NCBI GenBank assembly: GCA_038883775.1
Contig: JAVZLM010000005.1
Location: 1 to 64,000 of the forward strand
Direction of reading: 5' to 3'
From: Candidatus Bathyarchaeia archaeon
GTDB lineage: Archaea; Thermoproteota; Bathyarchaeia; Bathyarchaeales; Bathycorpusculaceae
Length of the DNA: 64,000 nucleotides
Below are positions 5,741 through 61,998 of this stretch, piece by piece (within the stretch, counting starts at the first letter, position 1; each line of letters starts with the position of its first letter). A program made the position numbers and the translations under genes. The notes under the pieces were generated by a model. It made no database searches. It was not told where the DNA came from and was given only the letters and a program-made list of their open reading frames with translations.

Positions 5741-7589
5741 CAGCTTCTGCTTCACAGATTTCGATGGCAGATTTCGCGCTAGATTAGCGGCGGTTATACC
5801 AAGGTTTTTTGCTGCAGCTGAGGAAACCAAGCTTGCTGGAACAAGCGCCCGCTATCAGTGCCGCATTAAGGTTGAGTATCAAAAGGATTTGATGGGGCTT
5901 TTGGAAGAGGGCATGCTTTTGGCTGTTAAAAATTTCAAGCAATGTGGAGAAGGCGAGGAGCGTTTTACGCTTATGGAGATTAGCCGTGTTTGGCCTGAAC
6001 ATTTTGGTTTGCGGGGCTTATCAGATCATGGTTATTATCCTATGCAATTTGAGATTATTGAGCAGTCTGAGGAGGATTGGCAGACAGACGATAGGTCTAC
6101 GATGATGGTTCAGATAGATGCCATACCAATAAATTATGATTTGATTGTTAATAGAAAATGTGAGTTTGAGTTTGTTAAGGGTTTCTCCTACCCAGTTGTG
6201 GGCAGCCCCGCCTATCTTTTAAACGGTGAAATGATAAATCGCATGTACAACCAGAAAATAGCTGAAAAGTTGGGAATAGACCCATCCAAAACCATCAGCG
6301 ACGCCCGTGCGGATCCACGGCTTGGTTTAATAAAAATGTTTCAAGCAAGCGAAACCATAATTCCAATTTATGTCGATTTTGAGAAGCTTGTGCGCTACCA
6401 TTTCGGCGTTTTCGCTTTTACTGGCGGTGGAAAAAGCAATTTGATGTCAAACATTTTGAGACGATTATTGTATCATACTGAGCAAACGAAGGTTGTGGTT
6501 TTTGACATAAGCTGTGAGTATGTTTTTCTTTTGCTTGATATCCTAACGGATCCGGCGATTTCTGCGAAGGTTATTATGGAAAATAGGATAGACTCCTTAG
6601 AGCAATTCTTCAACTCTGTTGTCAAACCGAGGGAATACGAAACTGACGAGCGGATCAAGAAGGGATTAAAATGTATAATGGACCAAGGCAGACTTTTCTA
6701 TTATAAAAGACCACGGGGGAAGGTTCCAACCTACAGCGAGTTTATGGAAGAGCTAAGCGACCAAAGGAAGGGTTCTGCTGACAAGCCAAATTATATGAAT
6801 GCTATTGATGAGATTCGCGATGCCATATTAGAGTATATTGAAGAGCATGGGCTTATGGAAAATCAGGAAGTCAGCGAAGACTTTGTTAAATACATAGATG
6901 AAATAGCGAGAGCGAAGGTAGAGGAGTTTAGGGTTCATGAAAAAAGCCAACTTTATGCTTGGGCAACCACCCGAAGCATGCTTTTAGATAGGATAAAAAG
7001 GCGGAATGAGAGGGAAGAGAAGGAGACGGGCGGATTAGCCATAGAAAAAATTCGAGAATTGTTGGAAGATAAAACGACGAGGCTTATTTGCATTTCAATT
7101 TCAGACCCCTTCACGATAAAGGATTTAGTGATAACACTTACGCAAGATTTGCTTGTTAGGAGAAAACGCAAATTCCAAGTTAAACCATACATCCTCCTCG
7201 TTTTCGATGAAGCTCAAGAGTTTATACCAAGTGGTGGCTCTGGCATTGATGCTAAATGTTCTGGGCATGTGGAAACATTGCTTAGGCAAGGACGCAAATA
7301 CGGCTTAGGCGTTTGCATAGCCACGCAGCGCATAGCCTACTTAAACACAAATGCCCTACAACAGCTTCACACCTATTTTGTTGGCACTTTGCCAAGACCC
7401 TACGACCGCCAACTTGTCAGCGAAACTTTCATGATAGATAAGGGCATATTGGAGAAAACTTTGGAGTTTGCGCCAGGCGAATGGCTATTGTCAAGTTATA
7501 TAGCGACTGGAATGGAGAACGTGCCAATATTCATAAAGGCAGACAACGCAGAAAACGAAATAGAAAAATACCTCTCTGCAGTTGACTGA
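5712..7589 (+). CDS. HerA/FtsK-family ATPase (DUF87) with N-terminal HAS-like barrel
   Basis: Walker A AFTGGGKS, Walker B LVFDEAQ, RQGRKYG, ATQR. Confidence 0.85.
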   Translation: MKRQEENNFNSFCFTDFDGRFRARLAAVIPRFFAAAEETKLAGTSARYQCRIKVEYQKDLMGLLEEGMLLAVKNFKQCGEGEERFTLMEISRVWPEHFGLRGLSDHGYYPMQFEIIEQSEEDWQTDDRSTMMVQIDAIPINYDLIVNRKCEFEFVKGFSYPVVGSPAYLLNGEMINRMYNQKIAEKLGIDPSKTISDARADPRLGLIKMFQASETIIPIYVDFEKLVRYHFGVFAFTGGGKSNLMSNILRRLLYHTEQTKVVVFDISCEYVFLLLDILTDPAISAKVIMENRIDSLEQFFNSVVKPREYETDERIKKGLKCIMDQGRLFYYKRPRGKVPTYSEFMEELSDQRKGSADKPNYMNAIDEIRDAILEYIEEHGLMENQEVSEDFVKYIDEIARAKVEEFRVHEKSQLYAWATTRSMLLDRIKRRNEREEKETGGLAIEKIRELLEDKTTRLICISISDPFTIKDLVITLTQDLLVRRKRKFQVKPYILLVFDEAQEFIPSGGSGIDAKCSGHVETLLRQGRKYGLGVCIATQRIAYLNTNALQQLHTYFVGTLPRPYDRQLVSETFMIDKGILEKTLEFAPGEWLLSSYIATGMENVPIFIKADNAENEIEKYLSAVD

Positions 7590-32550: not shown

Positions 32551-32722
32551 TGGGGCCGGCCGGATTTGAACCGACGACCTTTCCCCGGAAACAGCGTTTG
32601 GCTGTTCCTACGGGTTTCTCTATGACCGCTCCAGAATTTCTTCATTCCGCTTTGCTGCGGTCCGCAAACCCGTTTTGGCTTATTCTGGAGCCCGTCGTCA
32701 TACCTTCCTAGACTACGGCCCC
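32551..32722 (-). tRNA. tRNA-Trp (CCA) with two introns: about 32616-32684 (37/38) and about 32581-32609 (near 43/44)
   Basis: Reverse complement GGGGCCG..ACGGG CTCCAG [69 nt] A CCCGT [29 nt] AGGTC GTCGG TTCAAAT CCGGC CGGCCCC A; BHB-like junctions. Confidence 0.9.
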
Positions 32723-54549: not shown

Positions 54550-54868
54550 GAGCTGGCGAAGTTGGCGGGTGGCTTTCGAGCCCGCTTTAAGGGCTTGAGG
54601 AAACTCCGCCCACAAGTAGAATTGCAACACCCGCAAGGGTGTAAGGCGAGAGCCTTGGCAACGGAGCAGAAACGAAACGTCCATCTAGCAGTTGCCAATG
54701 ATACATGCTAAGTTGTTGAGAATGCTGGACGGAAACGGTGAAACGGCCGCCCTGCAAGTGGAAAGGGCAAACAGACGCCTGTGAGGAATCTACCCAGAGG
54801 CGCGGGTAGCCCGATTAGTCGAATGCCACCTAAAACTAAAGGCGGGTTACAGCCAACATCGCCAGCTC
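54550..54868 (+). ncRNA. rnpB: RNase P RNA
   Basis: P1 GAGCTGGCGA/TCGCCAGCTC; GAGGAAACTCCGCCC; CAGAAACG; TGAAACG; ACTAAAGGCGGGTTA. Confidence 0.96.
54832..54864 (+). repeat. Direct repeat copy 1 (3' end of rnpB)
   Basis: AAAACTAAAGGCGGGTTACAGCCAACATCGCCA; 31/33 identical to 60604-60636. Confidence 0.9.
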
Positions 54869-54945
54869 TATAAATAACACTAGCCCTCCAGATCGCTGAG
54901 CAATGTTACCATCGTGCATTGTGCATCTGCTTGCGGACTATTTCT

Positions 54946-55710
54946 CTATTCTATGATTCGCCTGAAACTAATTGAAGCTATGATAAACATTACAGCGTCA
55001 AAAATTGCAATTGCAGCTAAATCCAGTAAAAGGTTTGAAACGTTTCCTGTAATTAATAAGCCTCTTACGGCATCGACAACGTAACTTAGCGGGTTAAATG
55101 TTGAAAATTCCCTTAGGATCGGCGGCATCATTTGAATAGGATATAGGGCGTTGCTTGCAAAGAATAGGGGCATGATTATGGCTTGGCCTATGCCCATAAA
55201 CCTTTCCCTAGTTTTCATAAAAGAAGCCACAAGTGTAGATATGGCGGCGAATCCGCCTGAAGCAAAAAAGATTATTGTGAAGGCTAGGATGAAGTAGGCT
55301 GGGTTGGGTATAAACTGCACGCCAATTATAAGCGCTATGGGCAAAATTATTAGGGCTTGGAATAGCGCCCTCACGCCTGAAGCCATAGACCTTCCTATCA
55401 CCATGGAATACCTTGAAGCTGGCGTGACAAGCAACTTCTTCAAGATGCCGGAGTCCCGCTCCCAAACCATCATCAACCCATAGAATATGCTGACGAAAGT
55501 TGTTGTTTGAATCATAACCCCCGGCGTTATGAAGTCCGTGTATGGCACTCCGCCTGTTGGTATAGCCCTAACACTGCTCATGACTGGGCCATAAATGACT
55601 ATCCATAGGATTGGTTGAACAGCCCTAAAGTAGATTTCCGTCCTGTCATGGCGTAGTCTCCTCAATTCCAGCTCAATCATAACCAGCATATTTTTAAAGC
55701 CTTCCATCAT
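54946..55710 (-). CDS. ABC-2 permease (DrrB-like)
   Basis: DFITPG, WERDSGILKKLLVTP, NPLSYVVDAVR. Confidence 0.92.
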   Translation of the reverse strand: MMEGFKNMLVMIELELRRLRHDRTEIYFRAVQPILWIVIYGPVMSSVRAIPTGGVPYTDFITPGVMIQTTTFVSIFYGLMMVWERDSGILKKLLVTPASRYSMVIGRSMASGVRALFQALIILPIALIIGVQFIPNPAYFILAFTIIFFASGGFAAISTLVASFMKTRERFMGIGQAIIMPLFFASNALYPIQMMPPILREFSTFNPLSYVVDAVRGLLITGNVSNLLLDLAAIAIFDAVMFIIASISFRRIIE

Positions 55711-55713
55711 GCC

Positions 55714-56711
55714 TTATCCCTTCCTAATCATATAACGCATATGCGTAACATCGCTGATTCTACCCTTCTCCTCAAGCCTTGTCCCAACATACTTAAGGAA
55801 AACATCATCCAACGTTGGCTTAGTTATAGAAACCTTCCCTACGGATATGCCCTCACCTTTTAAGACGTTCATTAGGCTTGGTAAGGTGGATTCGGCATCA
55901 TCAACAAACACACTTAAACTTCCATCTTCGACAAAGACATCCCTTATAAAACTTAATTTCCGAAATTCTTTACTTAATTCAGGTTTGATGGTCGCCTTTT
56001 CAAGCGTAAATGCGACGATCTCGCCGCCTAATGAATGCTTCAGCTCTTCACTTGTTCCTCGAGTCACTATCTTTCCTTGGTTAATTATGGCTATGTCATC
56101 CGCATATAAGTCAGCCTCATCCATGTAATGTGTATTAAAGAATATGGTTACGCCGTATTCCCTCTTAAAAACGTTTAACCTTTCCCAAACAACCTTCCGT
56201 GCAGCTGGATCCAAACCAATTGTTGGCTCGTCTAAAAACATGATTTTCGGCCTAATAAGCATGGCACATGCTATTTCAAGTCTCCTATCATCCCACCAGA
56301 ATATGTCCTAACCAATTCATTTTTCACATTGATTAAACCCATATGCTCCAAAACTTCATCAATTATTTTTTCCCTTTCATCAGTTGACAAACCGAAAATT
56401 TTAGAATAAACTAAAAGATTTTCATAGCCGCTAATATCCGTCCAAACGCTCATCTCTTGAGGAACATAGCTGATTAGCCTTCTAACCTTGCCGCCTTGAC
56501 GGACAACATTCAAACCGAAAACATGTGCTTCTCCGGCAGTAGGCTTAATCTGCGTTGTCAAAATGCGCATAAGAGTGGTTTTTCCAGCACCATTCGGCCC
56601 TAACAATGCAAATGCCTTTCCAGTCTCAACCGTCAAATCCACACCATTCAAAGCCCTAACCTTTCCATTGTAAACTTTTACAAGGCCATTAACTTTAACA
56701 GCAAAATCCAT
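55714..56711 (-). pseudogene. ABC transporter ATP-binding protein (DrrA-like), 1-nt frameshift near 56286
   Basis: GPNGAGKT..YSGGMI in one frame; RLEIACAMLIRPKIMFLDEPTIGLD continues in another. Confidence 0.85.
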
Positions 56712-56862
56712 TTCCCCGTCACCCTTTAGTAACCAATAAGCCTACAAACACAAGCTTAAAAACTTTATAGAAAAAATATTAAATGACGCTTTTCGTTTCG
56801 AACAGTTAATATCTTTCTGTTAGAACACAACAGATGCAAATTTGACATTTGCTGGGTGAAGC

Positions 56863-58035
56863 ATGGATAAAAACGATAAGTTGCTTGCTTTTGTGTACTT
56901 AGTCGTCTTTTTTATAGGAATGATGTTCGGTATTGAAAGTGTAATTCCTCTTTTCTTTAAGTCCTTGGGAGTGGCACTCATTGACTGGGGAATATTAGCT
57001 TTCTTATCCACGTTTGGAATGTTGCTTTTTGAAATGATTTGGGGAATACTATCAGACAAATTCGACAAATTCAAGCTCATATTAGGAGGCCTTTTTACAT
57101 CCGCCATTGTGACATTGGCTTACATCGCACCTTTCTCTTTTTACCTTTTTTTGATTCTTCAGGCTTTAAGAGGAGCGTTTAATGTGATGTCGCCACCATC
57201 TACTAGAACGCTTGTCTCTGAATTGTCTTCGTCTAGAAATCTTGTATTTGTATTGGGTTTATGGTTCTCAGCAATAAGACTAGGTTCAACGGTTGGTTCT
57301 CTCTTTTTTAGCTACGTAGCTCAAGAGTTTAGTTATGCCATAACATTTATTTCTTGTTCCACATTGTTATTCGTAATTGGACTGAGTACACTAATTGTTC
57401 TTCGCAGAACAGAATTTTCAACTTATCCCAGAGCTGGAAAACTGAAAACTCGAAGAGTCTCAATGCGGCATGCTCTAAGTGAAATATTAAAGGTAAACTC
57501 AATCTACATGATTTTCTTCTGTGCAGTAATAAGCTTTTTACAGATGAGCATGATAAGAACAATAATTCCTTTGTTTGCTTCTGAAATCCTTGGTGCATCA
57601 ACTTTTCTTGTAGGGTTAAACCAAGCGGAGTTCACAGGTTTCTGTGTAGTCTTCTTTATTCTCTCAGGTTTTCTGGCGGAAAAAATCGGTACGAAGAAAA
57701 CCATTACCATCGGATTCGCAACTCTTCTCTTTTCCGCAATAACATTTTCAATAACTGTTGATTTTTACCAATTGTCAGTTTCAACTATTCTTTCATCCTT
57801 TGGTTTCTCTCTAGTTGCGCCTTCACTTCTCGCGTTATTGATTGGCTCCGTCCCAGAAAAAGTGTTGGGCGCATCTGTGGGAATTTATGGCAGCATTGAA
57901 AACCTAGGCATAACTATAGCCCCATTACTATTCACCATAATCTGGAATTGTTTTGGCATACAATATGTCTTCTATGTCTGCGGAGTAATACAGGCAATAG
58001 GTTTCATTTTCGCGCTAACCTTAAGAGACAGCTAG
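56863..58035 (+). CDS. MFS transporter
   Basis: GILSDKFDK and FLAEKIGTK motif A; about 12 TMs. Confidence 0.88.
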   Translation: MDKNDKLLAFVYLVVFFIGMMFGIESVIPLFFKSLGVALIDWGILAFLSTFGMLLFEMIWGILSDKFDKFKLILGGLFTSAIVTLAYIAPFSFYLFLILQALRGAFNVMSPPSTRTLVSELSSSRNLVFVLGLWFSAIRLGSTVGSLFFSYVAQEFSYAITFISCSTLLFVIGLSTLIVLRRTEFSTYPRAGKLKTRRVSMRHALSEILKVNSIYMIFFCAVISFLQMSMIRTIIPLFASEILGASTFLVGLNQAEFTGFCVVFFILSGFLAEKIGTKKTITIGFATLLFSAITFSITVDFYQLSVSTILSSFGFSLVAPSLLALLIGSVPEKVLGASVGIYGSIENLGITIAPLLFTIIWNCFGIQYVFYVCGVIQAIGFIFALTLRDS

Positions 58036-58070
58036 CATGCCAGCCTTTTCCTCATGTTTGGTTGCCAAAC

Positions 58071-58187
58071 CTTTTTATAAGCGTGTTGCGTTTAGTTTTG
58101 CTGTCACATATTCACTCATGCAATTATAGAGGCCTTTTGAAAGCTTTTGGAAGATGCATGAAAAGTTTTGTGGCAGGAGATAAATAT
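58071..58187 (+). promoter_or_regulatory. TATA box and structured 5' leader of the DEAD-box helicase gene
   Basis: TTTATAAGC, then CTGTCACA/TGTGGCAG and TCATGCA/TGCATGA stems abutting GGAG. Confidence 0.5.
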
Positions 58188-59296
58188 ATGCAAAAACAAT
58201 ACTTCAGAGATTTACAGTTAAGTGCGGAGGTTATGAGGGGAATCGAAGAGTCGGGTTTAGTAATCTTTTTCCAATTCAAGCCCAAGCCATAACTCCTTTA
58301 CTGGAAGGCAAAGATGTTATTGGACAAGCGCAGACTGGAACGGGAAAGACGGCCGTTTTCGGCATTCCAATGATTGAAAGATTAAACCCAAAAGTTAAGG
58401 ATGTTCAAGGCTTAGTTTTAGTGCCAACTCATGAGCTTGCTGTCCAAGTTGCAGAGCGCATTAGCCGATTTGGAAAATACACAAAAATGAAAGTCTTACC
58501 AGTTTACGGAGGAGAACCCATTGAAAAACAAATACGTGCACTTAAAAACGGAGTCCAAATTGTCGTCGGTACGCCAGGCCGCATCATTGACTTGCTTGAG
58601 AGGCGCATGTTAAACTTGGCATTTGTGAGAATTGTTGTTCTCGATGAAGCGGATAGGATGTTGGACATGGGTTTCATAGACGATATTGAACACATACTTT
58701 CAAAAGTGCCAGCTAATAGGCAGACAAGCCTTTTCTCGGCGACAATAGACCACTCGGTAATGAAAATATGCAGTAGATACCTTAAGAATCCTGAAAAGAT
58801 ACTTGTAAGCAAAGGCGAAATAGCCCTTTCACAAATAACCCAATATTACATGGTTGTAAACCCGCACAACAAATTCGAAATTTTATGCAATATTCTGGAC
58901 GAAAACCATATAGAAAAAGCCATAATATTCTGTAAAACCCGACTTGGAACAAGCATGCTTGCAGATAAGCTTAGAAAAAGGGGATACGACGCAAAACCAC
59001 TGCATGCCGGTTTCACCCAATCGCAGAGAGATTTTGTTACAAACTCTTTCCGAAGGGGGAAACTGAAATTGCTTGTTGCAACGGATGTTGCCGCGAGAGG
59101 CTTAGACATTCAAGGAATAACTCACATAATTAACTATGACGTTCCGTTTGACGCCCTCGTATATTTTCATAGGATAGGCAGAACCGCTAGAAAGGGACAT
59201 GAAGGAACAGCCATAACCCTTGTAGGCTACGGTGAACTCATAAACTTTAACAATATAAAAGCCCTCACCAAAACAACAATAGAAGAAATAACGTGA
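58188..59296 (+). pseudogene. DEAD-box RNA helicase, 1-nt frameshift near 58257
   Basis: MQKQYFRDLQLS.. then Q-motif PIQAQAI and AQTGTGKT in the next frame; DEAD, SAT, ARGLD, HRIGRT. Confidence 0.85.
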
Positions 59297-59362
59297 AACG
59301 CCTTTCTTCCCATAACCATAATAGGCAGAACATGCATTCTCTTATGAGGTTAAGACTAAAAT

Positions 59363-59506
59363 ATGCCTACTGACCCTGTTTGCGGAATAATTCTTGATGA
59401 AAGGACGGCCAAGTTCAAAAGCACTTACGAAGGTGAAACCTACTATTTTTGCTCGTTAACATGCAAGAAAAAATTCAAAAGACACTCAACGAAGTTTGTT
59501 AAATAA
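59363..59506 (+). CDS. YHS domain protein (47 aa, absent from ORF track)
   Basis: MPTDPVCGIILDERTAKFKSTYEGETYYFCSLTCKKKF. Confidence 0.88.
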   Translation: MPTDPVCGIILDERTAKFKSTYEGETYYFCSLTCKKKFKRHSTKFVK

Positions 59507-59636
59507 CCTTTAGCTATTTTTCAATTGCCTTTATAAGCAAGGTTGAAGATTATTTATCAGTAACGTTCTACCATTGAACATGCGCGTAAACAAGGCAACG
59601 TTACATGCTACAAATAACATAAAAAGGAGTGAAAAA

Positions 59637-59924
59637 ATGACAGAAAATAGGGATGTTATCTTCATTGGAAACAAACCGCCAATGGCCTACGTCCTAGCCA
59701 TTATTACAAGCCTCTCCGCAAGCAACGCCAAAGAAATAACTCTGAAAGCCCGCGGGCAAGCAATTACAACAGCGGTTGACGCAGTTGAAATAGCCAGAAG
59801 ACGCTTCATGAAAGATTTGCAAATAAGCAAAGTATCCATTGGCACCGAGGAAATGCCGCCGAGAGAAGGTGAAAATAGGTCAAGGATGGTTTCGACAATG
59901 GAGATAACCCTTAAAAAAGAGTAG
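59637..59924 (+). CDS. albA: DNA/RNA-binding protein Alba
   Basis: IFIGNKPPMAYVLA, KARGQAITTAVD, IGTE, VSTMEI; SD AGGAGTG. Confidence 0.93.
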   Translation: MTENRDVIFIGNKPPMAYVLAIITSLSASNAKEITLKARGQAITTAVDAVEIARRRFMKDLQISKVSIGTEEMPPREGENRSRMVSTMEITLKKE

Positions 59925-59929
59925 GAAAA

Positions 59930-60538
59930 ATGCGAAGCAAAATATCACCCAGCGAATACCTCGCTTTTCTTTCCCTAAAATATGAGGTTGACCCTGACAA
60001 GCTTTTCTACGCAATAGTTTCAGCAAGCGAAACTGGAAAATCCACGTGTGAAAATCTCCTAGTTGAATGCCGTGGTAAACAAAGGAAAGGGATTATCCTT
60101 TTAATAACAAAAGGCAAAAAAGTTGTGGCTCAATTTCCGATACTTAAAGAATTTTTAAGGGAAAAGAACAATCCAATAAAAGAGATAAGAAAAACAAACT
60201 TGTTCCGCAGATACTCCATCATAAAAGGCATTAAACCGCATTCTTTTCAGATAGGAGATTTAAGGGTAGGAATGAGAAAAGTTAACGTGAAGGCGAAGGT
60301 TCTTGAAATCACAAAACCTACTCTTGTTTTTACAAGATTTGGAAACTATGCCAGCGTAGCCAACGCTCGGATAGCAGATGAAACGGGAGAAATTAAACTA
60401 TGCTTGTGGAACAAACAAATAGACTCCATATCCATAGGAGACACGGTTCAAATTGAGAATGCGAACACATCAGCGTTTAGAGGCGAGAAACAATTGAGAA
60501 TTGGAAGAAAGGGTATTTTCCGCAACATGGGAATTTAA
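59930..60538 (+). CDS. Unknown N-terminal domain fused to SSB/RPA-type OB fold
   Basis: VNVKAKVLE, IADETGEIKLCLW, GDTVQIENA, FRGEKQL. Confidence 0.8.
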   Translation: MRSKISPSEYLAFLSLKYEVDPDKLFYAIVSASETGKSTCENLLVECRGKQRKGIILLITKGKKVVAQFPILKEFLREKNNPIKEIRKTNLFRRYSIIKGIKPHSFQIGDLRVGMRKVNVKAKVLEITKPTLVFTRFGNYASVANARIADETGEIKLCLWNKQIDSISIGDTVQIENANTSAFRGEKQLRIGRKGIFRNMGI

Positions 60539-60553
60539 TGAGGTAAACAAAAA

Positions 60554-60598
60554 CTATAAAATCTCCTTTGCCGCCTTTCTGTAAACTTCAAAGTCACA
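60554..60598 (-). repeat. Diverged copy of the 3' end of the macrodomain gene
   Basis: Encodes DFEVYRKAAKEIL* versus DFEIYRKTAGEIL* at 61296-61337 (10/13 aa, 30/42 nt by hand). Confidence 0.85.
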
Positions 60599-60603
60599 TC
60601 CCA

Positions 60604-60636
60604 AAAACTAAAGACAGGTTACAGCCAACATCGCCA
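60604..60636 (+). repeat. Direct repeat copy 2 (duplicated rnpB 3' end)
   Basis: AAAACTAAAGACAGGTTACAGCCAACATCGCCA. Confidence 0.9.
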
Positions 60637-60691
60637 ACCATATGGAGAAATGGATAAAGTTTTAAGGTTTTAATGAATTACAAATTTTATT

Positions 60692-61286
60692 GTGTACGAA
60701 ATTTCAGAGCCTTTACATTTATATTTAGTGAAAAATCTTAGAGGAATAGTTTACTTTTCAATAACTGTTTCTGTAAAAGAAGAGTTTGATTGGCTTAAAA
60801 GAAAATTTAAATACAGAGAACTTGGAATTTCCGAAAGTTTAGGACTTAAGCAGACATGGAAGAAACTTTTGACCTTACCAAAAATCGAGGAAAACCCAGC
60901 GCTGGATTCGCTTTCTTCAAGCTTCAAAATTCATTTGTCCCTTAACAGTTTTGAAGGAAGAAAGTCTAAAAGATTTTGGAAATGCCATAATCGCTTGTCT
61001 CAAAACTAAAGAGAAACTAAGCGACAAAGAATTGAAATTTAATTTGAGATTGGTTAATTATTCCATAACAGATTTTTATTTAAAATCCATAGAACTTGCC
61101 TTGCAGTCTGACATGGAAGGAAGAAGGAAGCTTGCAGAAAAGGATATGAAAAGATTCTGGAGAATTAAAGCCAGCAAAGACGGAAAAACTTTGATCGCGT
61201 ATGCGGACCCACTTCTGCTCAAAAGCACTCTGCAAAATGCAATGCAAATGAGCCTTGTCCCATGCATAATCCTTGATTTAAGCTAA
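60692..61286 (+). pseudogene. Hypothetical gene split into two overlapping ORFs (probable frameshift near 60950)
   Basis: ORFs 60692-61009 and 60951-61286 overlap across a T-run; no family recognised. Confidence 0.45.
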
Positions 61287-61295
61287 ACTTGGCGA

Positions 61296-61853
61296 TTACA
61301 GAATTTCTCCTGCTGTTTTTCTGTAAATTTCGAAGTCGCGACTTGAAAACAACACGAACACAACTTTGTCGAGGTTATCCTCCTTTTCCAAAAACTCCTT
61401 AACCGTTGATAGGGCTATTTTGCTCGCTTCTTCGATAGGATAACCATAGGTGCCCGTGCTTATGGCTGGAAACGCAATAGTTTTTAGTCCTTTAGAAACA
61501 GCTAATTTTAGCGAGTTGTGGTAAGCTTCAGCTAAAAGTTGCGGCTCACCACTTGAGCCGCCACGCCATATGGGTCCAACAGTGTGGATAACGTATTTAG
61601 CCTTTAAGTTCCCGCCAGAAGTGATGACAGCCTTTCCCGTTGGTAATCCGTTTGGATATTCTGTGGCTCTTATGCGTTTGCATTCCTCAAGGATTTTTGG
61701 TCCGCCCTTGCGGTGGATTGCTCCGTCCACGCCTCCGCCTCCCATAAGCGATGGATTAGCAGCGTTCACTATTGCATCAGTGTCCATTTCAGTTATGTCG
61801 CCTTGAACTAGGAGGATTTTTGCCTTGCCAACCCTAAATTCTTCACTCGGCAT
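61296..61853 (-). CDS. Macrodomain protein (O-acetyl-ADP-ribose deacetylase, YmdB-like)
   Basis: GDIT, IVNAAN..GGGGVDGAIH, IHTVGP, FPAISTG.YGYP. Confidence 0.95.
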   Translation of the reverse strand: MPSEEFRVGKAKILLVQGDITEMDTDAIVNAANPSLMGGGGVDGAIHRKGGPKILEECKRIRATEYPNGLPTGKAVITSGGNLKAKYVIHTVGPIWRGGSSGEPQLLAEAYHNSLKLAVSKGLKTIAFPAISTGTYGYPIEEASKIALSTVKEFLEKEDNLDKVVFVLFSSRDFEIYRKTAGEIL

Positions 61854-61998
61854 TAGAGTCCCCCTCAACAATTTATTCTGTAACCATTCTAAATTCTTAA
61901 ATGTTAAATCTTTCTCGCCCTTAAACACTTACACACATAAAATTAGGGCTTAAGCTTATTTTCTTGAAAAATAACTAATCTTCAGCAAGGTGAAAATC

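Follow-up and report, generated by a model that had tools for sequence, protein, structure and literature searches.

A macrodomain gene end joined to a displaced rnpB end marks an old recombination scar in Bathyarchaeia

How did the tail of one conserved gene come to lie against the displaced tail of another, between intact copies of both? The question is raised by a stretch of 64,000 nucleotides (hereafter, the window) from contig C5 of G000, a 1.69-Mb metagenome-assembled genome (MAG; 28 contigs, 91% complete, 5.1% estimated contamination) whose relatives are Bathyarchaeia from hot springs. Two convergent genes delimit the locus. On the plus strand lies rnpB (54551–54868), the intact gene for RNase P RNA, which matches the full Rfam model RF00373 at 54557–54861 with 192.6 bits and in which the arms of the P1 helix were detected as inverted repeat I4. 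On the minus strand lies a macrodomain gene for an O-acetyl-ADP-ribose deacetylase (macro, 61296–61928; PF01661; NF001664, 243.8 bits against a cut-off of 200), followed downstream by a beta-lactamase-fold gene and then a LysE gene. The layout between them is as an initial annotation of this DNA had correctly proposed: a forward-oriented group of genes (cargo 1), a reversed relic of a macro 3′ end (macro-end′), a forward copy of the rnpB 3′ end (rnpB-end′) and a further forward gene (cargo 2), which converges on macro. Elsewhere in the window (32551–32722, minus strand), Rfam places a tRNA of 172 nt that has no ARAGORN call, probably an intron-containing gene.

The joint between two gene ends

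The relic macro-end′ (60554–60595, minus strand) begins 15 nt past the stop codon of the last gene of cargo 1 and comprises the last 13 codons of a macrodomain gene, DFEVYRKAAKEIL, together with the stop. Aligned without gaps to the end of the resident gene (61296–61337), stop codon on stop codon, it is identical at 30/42 nucleotides and 10/13 amino acids. When the resident 42-mer was compared with both strands of the 64-kb window, macro-end′ was the top non-self match, the next scores being 26 and 25, and about 1e-4 matches as good as this are expected by chance. All five synonymous differences from the resident gene that had been named at the outset (tta/ctg, gag/gaa, aag/aaa, ttt/ttc and tag/taa) are present. 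The relic retains both AAKEIL, the consensus of the macro family, and the RK of the G000 genus. Its codons GTT, GCG and AAG also occur in outgroups, the resident genes having since been altered at these positions; the other differences are all silent and are not polarised by the outgroups.

Five bases assignable to neither parent (60596–60600) separate macro-end′ from rnpB-end′ (60601–60643, plus strand), an attR-like sequence that matches 54829–54871 at 37/43 nt and bears the genus-type CAACATCGCCA.C. The end of the macrodomain gene thus does lie directly left of an rnpB 3′-end copy, as first described. Candidate microhomology of 4–7 nt, with ambiguous boundaries, is offered by AGTC (60592–95) or CC.AAAA (60601–07), and a gapped alignment lets the rnpB homology start ~12 nt further left, where it overlaps the last macro-end′ codon. 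The two relics differ in their divergence from the resident copies, 12/42 nt for macro-end′ versus 6/43 nt for rnpB-end′; the higher value can be read both ways, as the possible mark of a foreign allele or of changes that the resident gene underwent later.

The joint is also present in a different, congeneric species, G004, with 95% identity over 105 nt and with the stop codon of macro-end′ mutated. It is further spanned by Logan contigs from three runs belonging to three studies, one of which runs may be the source sample: X1 record 7 (covering 60125–61410), X2 record 14 (60398–61045) and X3 record 22 (60485–60818). Together with the chance expectation of about 1e-4, these observations exclude both chance similarity and assembly chimerism, the strain-chimeric origin against which the initial annotation had cautioned. 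The joint is the real scar of an ancient recombination that preceded the split between G000 and G004. Its exact pattern gave 0 matches in the JGI metagenomes. Another apparent joint in a population contig, from 58206 to 60550 in X8, was set aside, as it has just 23 letters on one side.

An inserted core gene cluster and a displaced native context

Cargo 1 consists of four genes recognised with Pfam, all on the plus strand: a DEAD-box helicase (N-terminal part, out of frame, at 57948–58292; main part at 58370–59296), YHS (59363–59506), Alba (59574–59924) and an OB-fold SSB-like protein (OB, 59930–60538). The inserted block in which they lie extends from ~54829 to ~60600. In G004 the insert is made up of a new rnpB tail, ~130 nt, DEAD-YHS-Alba-OB, 15 nt and the macro tail, and nothing else; mobile-element genes are absent from it, and this older insert consists of core genes. 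In G000, G001, G002 and G004 the cluster has rnpB on one side and macro on the other; in G003 it adjoins macro, with rnpB on a separate contig. In other genera DEAD-YHS-Alba-OB is conserved at other genomic places, to which rnpB and macro are not adjacent, and in G012 (contig C1) the cluster has the same gene order as in G000. Contrary to the initial description, cargo 1 is a core cluster, sited elsewhere in other genera, and not an exchangeable cassette. We found no donor site for the DEAD-OB cluster in G000, in which the genes flanking the G012 cluster are not conserved.

Three side observations concern the coding content of these loci. The N-terminal ~100 codons of the helicase (window 57948–58369) are out of frame in G000, the ORF of G001 is intact (409 aa), and contigs of runs X1 and X8 have an extra G behind 58181; the disruption may reflect either variation between strains or a mistake in the assembly. 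Judged from translations alone, two ORFs between OB and macro in G001 (L064, 5119–5962) form a nucleotidyltransferase/HEPN-like pair, and two ORFs after rnpB on contig C44 of G003 (L076, 2370–3680) an AbiE-like pair.

To the right of the joint, rnpB-end′ is followed by a spacer of 48 nt (60644–60691, plus strand) and by cargo 2 (60692–61286, plus strand). The three are collinear with the uninterrupted locus on contig C2 of G131, which reads Mrr-AAA18-rnpB, cargo 2 and, convergent to these, macro-Blac-LysE, and also with the attR sides of the occupied loci of G105 and G045. This collinearity with the native context indicates that rnpB-end′ is the original rnpB 3′ end, displaced together with its old neighbours. 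Conversely, the last ~43 nt of the rnpB gene as it now stands (54829–54871) would be the copy brought by the inserted block. The G131 MAG contains two distinct full Mrr-AAA18-rnpB loci, L132 (C2) and L133 (C18), which are 85% and 89% identical to the rnpB of G000, and is probably a mixture of two strains or species.

Cargo 2 is a conserved gene of 197 aa that has no Pfam or NCBIfam family match. It is frameshifted in G000, where it appears as two overlapping ORFs, intact in G004 (L063:1874–2464) and broken in G131. The gene is present in 19/151 genomes of the family, in single copy in G000 and G004; at 20 of 36 loci it converges on macro, and rnpB sequence lies ahead of it in four of the 36. 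In the window the gap between cargo 2 and macro is 9 nt. The resident macro gene falls with its genus in the gene tree, and the cargo 2 tree and identity matrices are too poorly resolved to reveal transfer. Import of cargo 2 through homology-facilitated illegitimate recombination (HFIR), which pairs a homologous crossover with one at microhomology, was considered as the sole reading of the locus and dropped, given the native context of rnpB-end′, spacer and cargo 2, the genus-type sequence of rnpB-end′ and the grouping of the resident macro gene with its genus. As the initial annotation had anticipated, rnpB and macro are convergent neighbours with variable cargo between them in relatives, lying so on one contig in 7/40; in G009 they share a contig in an orientation that is not convergent. 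The size of the rnpB-macro interval ranges from 190 bp to ~13.6 kb.

A second, smaller displacement is found directly behind rnpB in G000, where an ABC-2 permease (54946–55710, minus strand), an interrupted ABC ATPase (55714–56262 and 56271–56711, minus strand) and an MFS transporter (56863–58035, plus strand), all assigned with Pfam, are followed by a second displaced rnpB terminus (58022–58041, plus strand; GACAGCTAGCAT-GCCAGC). By hand count, 15/18 nt of the latter match the rnpB terminus, and behind it stands CTTTTCC, the flank that directly follows rnpB in G004. These genes are missing from G004, G001 and G002, an MFS homologue occurs in 1/150 other genomes of the family, and population contigs connect 54866 to 58057 and 54866 to 56779, so that they either lack the island or hold the MFS gene alone. 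On this comparative evidence, the ABC-MFS island (window 54867–58041) is a younger att-flanked insertion at the exact rnpB terminus. The flank right after rnpB (54867–54895, plus strand; TCTATAAATAACAC...) resembles, by eye, the element arm of G045 and G105 that runs from rnpB to the integrase stop codon.

Integration at the rnpB 3′ end

The same site is used by integrases in the lineage. The C2 locus of G131 is an empty site, and its congeners G105 (L135/L134) and G045 (L140/L139) carry, between the same flanks, rnpB, a convergent tyrosine integrase and an attR of 22 nt located ~57 nt before cargo 2. On contig C14 of G023 (L137), rnpB is followed by an integrase, ~8 kb and then two displaced rnpB ends. 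Related integrases stand directly after rnpB in G021 (C2, L069), G030 (C44, L032) and G024 (C28, L013), and integrase fragments do so in G017 and G008; an integrase or a fragment of one directly 3′ of rnpB was recorded in 6/30 rnpB loci. There are two types of integrase at rnpB, one co-oriented with the gene and one convergent to it. In G020 and G021, partial rnpB copies followed by integrases also occur at other genomic places. The genus-type rnpB-end pattern was found in three contigs of the JGI metagenomes, one of them an unrelated chance match; of the other two, L182 has a genus-type rnpB end with an intact integrase (283 aa, PF00589) ~50 nt downstream, and L183 has a decayed integrase N-terminus after rnpB. 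In viral contigs the pattern gave 0 matches. Collectively, the occupied and empty loci show the rnpB 3′ end to be an attB of tyrosine integrases in relatives of G000, which renders doubtful the claim that it acted in this locus as an integrase-free attachment site.

The length of the displaced ends is less informative about the enzyme. Measured against the own rnpB of each genome, it is 20–25 nt in G105, G045 and G023, and it is 57–220 nt elsewhere; since it varies among lineages, the 43-nt boundary in G000 does not point to any single type of integrase. An att boundary common to G000 and G023 was likewise rejected as proof of integrase action, because just ~25 nt are clear when the G023 copies are compared with the rnpB of G023 itself.

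No integrase or integrase remnant was found in the intervals of G000, G004, G001 and G002 at E <= 5, except for translated rnpB. Elsewhere in G000 there are five PF00589 matches, three of which are 45–51% identical to the rnpB-site integrase of G105, which makes it plausible that an integrase acted in trans at the G000 locus. On contig C3 of the same genome, a perfect direct repeat of 44 nt (C3:1623–1666 and 7528–7571) surrounds ~5.9 kb, with two PF00589 integrase genes beside it (C3:1012–1473 and C3:3702–4199); the segment is probably an element that integrated recently. ARAGORN detected no tRNA in C3:1–2973 and C3:2202–5699, a span outside which the second repeat copy lies.

The targets of archaeal tyrosine recombinases are described as mainly tRNA genes, but also protein-coding genes and intergenic regions, in a 2021 review (PMC8371274), whose text names neither RNase P nor rnpB. 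In another paper rnpB appears solely as a phylogenetic marker (PMC2516327), and no description of rnpB in the role of an attB came up in the literature searched.

Age and origin of the joint

The relatives of G000 allow the event to be placed in time. Both G001 and G002 are without cargo 2 and the macro tail, and both contain, 4–7 nt past the OB stop codon, a degraded relic of an rnpB end plus its flank (z = 5.5 and 5.8; 0/500 shuffles each). There is no detectable relic in the OB-macro spacer of G003 (60/500 shuffles reach its score), and rnpB-like relics after OB were not found in 13 other genera (z < 0.3), the apparent match after OB in G012 being due to chance. The macro gene tree has the topology ((G001,G002),(G003,(G000,G004))), with genus support of 100/99. 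Taken together, the relics and the tree topology place the origin of the displaced rnpB end before the genus crown. It also follows from the relics that the cargo-1-only loci of G001 and G002 probably arose from the stack by deletion, and, since G003 is nested inside the genus, its clean locus is most simply regarded as a secondary loss. The prediction of single-cargo alleles therefore holds for one cargo, through the cargo-2-only locus of G131, and probably does not hold for the other, the cargo-1-only loci being probable derivatives of the stack.

On balance, we somewhat favour the view that the joint is the fossil of a single old additive event in which two versions of the rnpB-macro interval recombined. 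The starting point would have been the ancestral order preserved in G131, namely Mrr-AAA18-rnpB and cargo 2 facing macro-Blac-LysE. In the stem of the genus, a block composed of a fresh rnpB 3′ end, DEAD-YHS-Alba-OB and ~42 nt from the very end of a macro gene would have been inserted about 43–55 nt before the end of rnpB, keeping rnpB intact and moving the old tail, the spacer, cargo 2 and macro downstream. Running from within rnpB to within macro, the block has the form of a permuted copy of an rnpB-to-macro interval. Such a block could have been delivered as a circle that was joined macro-to-rnpB and entered through a single crossover, by unequal exchange between two chromosomes, or as a linear fragment through HFIR. 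The circle with a single crossover that was initially proposed fits the permuted fusion, and so do the other two routes: all three yield the same product and are not separable. Later, in G000, this site would also have taken up the att-flanked ABC-MFS island, G001 and G002 would have lost the macro tail and cargo 2, and the G003 spacer would have come to be without a relic. A donor version in which OB stood beside macro is inferred, as is the nature of the intermediate; among the genomes examined, no clean donor with rnpB, DEAD-OB and a convergent macro gene without relics was found except G003. As to the catalyst, we consider an rnpB-specific tyrosine integrase acting in trans about as probable as ordinary or illegitimate recombination.

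A more specific version of the integrase route is possible, though we hold it to be rather improbable. An rnpB-specific integrase acting in trans would have recombined the rnpB att with a look-alike site at the macro 3′ end, and the excised circle would have been re-inserted at rnpB. It is equally tentative that this circle was the whole interval with its essential-looking helicase-Alba-SSB cluster, and that its target was another genome or another copy of the chromosome. Were this true, integrases of Bathyarchaeia would be able to mobilise core gene clusters and relocate them between conserved gene ends.

A tandem duplication is a comparably unlikely source of the joint. In an ancestor with cargo 2 between rnpB and macro, the segment from about −43 of rnpB to about +42 of macro would have been duplicated, and the first copy of cargo 2 would later have been replaced by a translocated DEAD-OB cluster, with no second allele or gene transfer involved. 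A permuted joint, segment end to segment start, is the signature of such an event; both relics show genus-type sequence, the 6/43 differences of rnpB-end′ fit an old event inside one genome, and every cargo-1-only genome looks derived. However, this scenario requires at least three events, including a replacement that removed the cargo 2 copy to within 15 nt of the macro-tail stop, and an intermediate with two cargo 2 copies is seen in no genome. Moreover, the two cargos are unrelated, so that the supposed copies differ in content, and the 15-nt spacer matches the end of cargo 2 over about 5–8 nt, which in our reading is not significant.

We give still less credence to a decayed canonical element, that is, an integrase-bearing element in rnpB that lost its genes, received the core cluster inside it and kept the macro-like tail as its arm. 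In its favour, rnpB serves as an attB in relatives, elements decay there (the fragments in G008 and G017; L183), and the ABC-MFS island of G000 is att-flanked without an integrase. Yet a macro tail beside the attR is found in none of G023 (two attR), G105, G045, G013, G020 and G021, the insert of G004 consists wholly of core genes, and OB adjoins the true macro gene, or the position of the macro relic, in G001–G003.

That the locus reflects a recurrent, integrase-free additive exchange of cassettes, with two housekeeping gene ends as attachment sites, seems slightly less probable again. The joint has the form predicted by such a mechanism, the interval is variable among relatives, and the intervals of G000 and G004 are without an integrase. 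On the other hand, this is a single such joint. In a genome-wide BLAST scan of G000, which finds only partners of detectable repeats and to which repeats as weak as the macro tail are invisible, a permuted partner accompanies just one of the 44 short direct-repeat pairs, that of rnpB, and the other paired 3′-end duplications expected of a general mechanism did not appear. Nor were further stacked junctions encountered beside the displaced rnpB ends of the relatives just listed. The younger additions at the site carry rnpB-end repeats and no macro tail, and integrases target the same rnpB site within the lineage. Finally, an artefact, whether chance similarity or a strain-chimeric assembly, is scarcely credible: G000 is a MAG with some estimated contamination, but the joint recurs in the independently assembled G004 and in contigs of three runs, and chance is negligible.

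How does a single additive recombination compare with known systems? Integration into the 3′ end of RNA genes, with attB of the tRNA/tmRNA type, resembles the situation in G000 in that the target remains intact, the displaced partial 3′ copy is in direct orientation and the native flank is kept. As in the att arrays of RNA genes, displaced copies follow one another, a pair each in G000 and G023, and as in the known system, relatives of G000 have both empty sites and occupied sites with integrases. The target here differs, being the RNase P RNA gene; furthermore, the older insert of G000 is without an integrase and consists of core genes, and it terminates in part of the adjacent conserved gene, not in an element arm. 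Integrase-less islands flanked by att sites, tandem element arrays at RNA genes and mobilisation in trans are features of CIMEs and of accretion. The pTN3 integrase of Thermococcales has reportedly produced inversions between tRNA gene fragments. That work (PMC5495485) concerns integrase-driven chromosomal rearrangement, and the likeness to our reading of G000 is that an archaeal tyrosine integrase acting on att copies of an RNA gene reshuffles the chromosome; the G000 joint differs in being of the insertion/duplication type and in that the role of an integrase is inferred.

HFIR has been proposed to generate displacement arrays, such as the orphan immunity genes of the Vibrio cholerae T6SS with displaced effector 3′ ends, and to underlie Rhs C-terminal displacement (PMC5361080). 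These arrays resemble G000 in being additive, with DNA entering beside a conserved anchor and the old module pushed downstream, and in keeping a gene 3′-end relic in an array without an integrase. The relic of a gene end that HFIR leaves at an illegitimate joint has its counterpart in macro-end′. The differences are that the organism here is an archaeon, that the anchor is an RNA gene which is also an integrase attB, that there is one relic-bearing displacement, and that HFIR would be hypothetical in this lineage. As for an integron-like cassette system, no recombinase was found in the interval, the sole repeats of which are rnpB ends.

Stacked alleles are a fair description of the geometry of the locus; a new integrase-free mechanism is not established, and the likeliest origin is a one-off additive event at an integrase hot spot. 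The RNase P RNA gene is a recurrent hot spot of integration and rearrangement in uncultured hot-spring Bathyarchaeia, to which a core gene cluster was relocated in the ancestor of one genus. The gene-end relic preserves the exact joint and can be traced across five species, providing a datable and testable case of conserved gene ends shaping variable loci in archaea.
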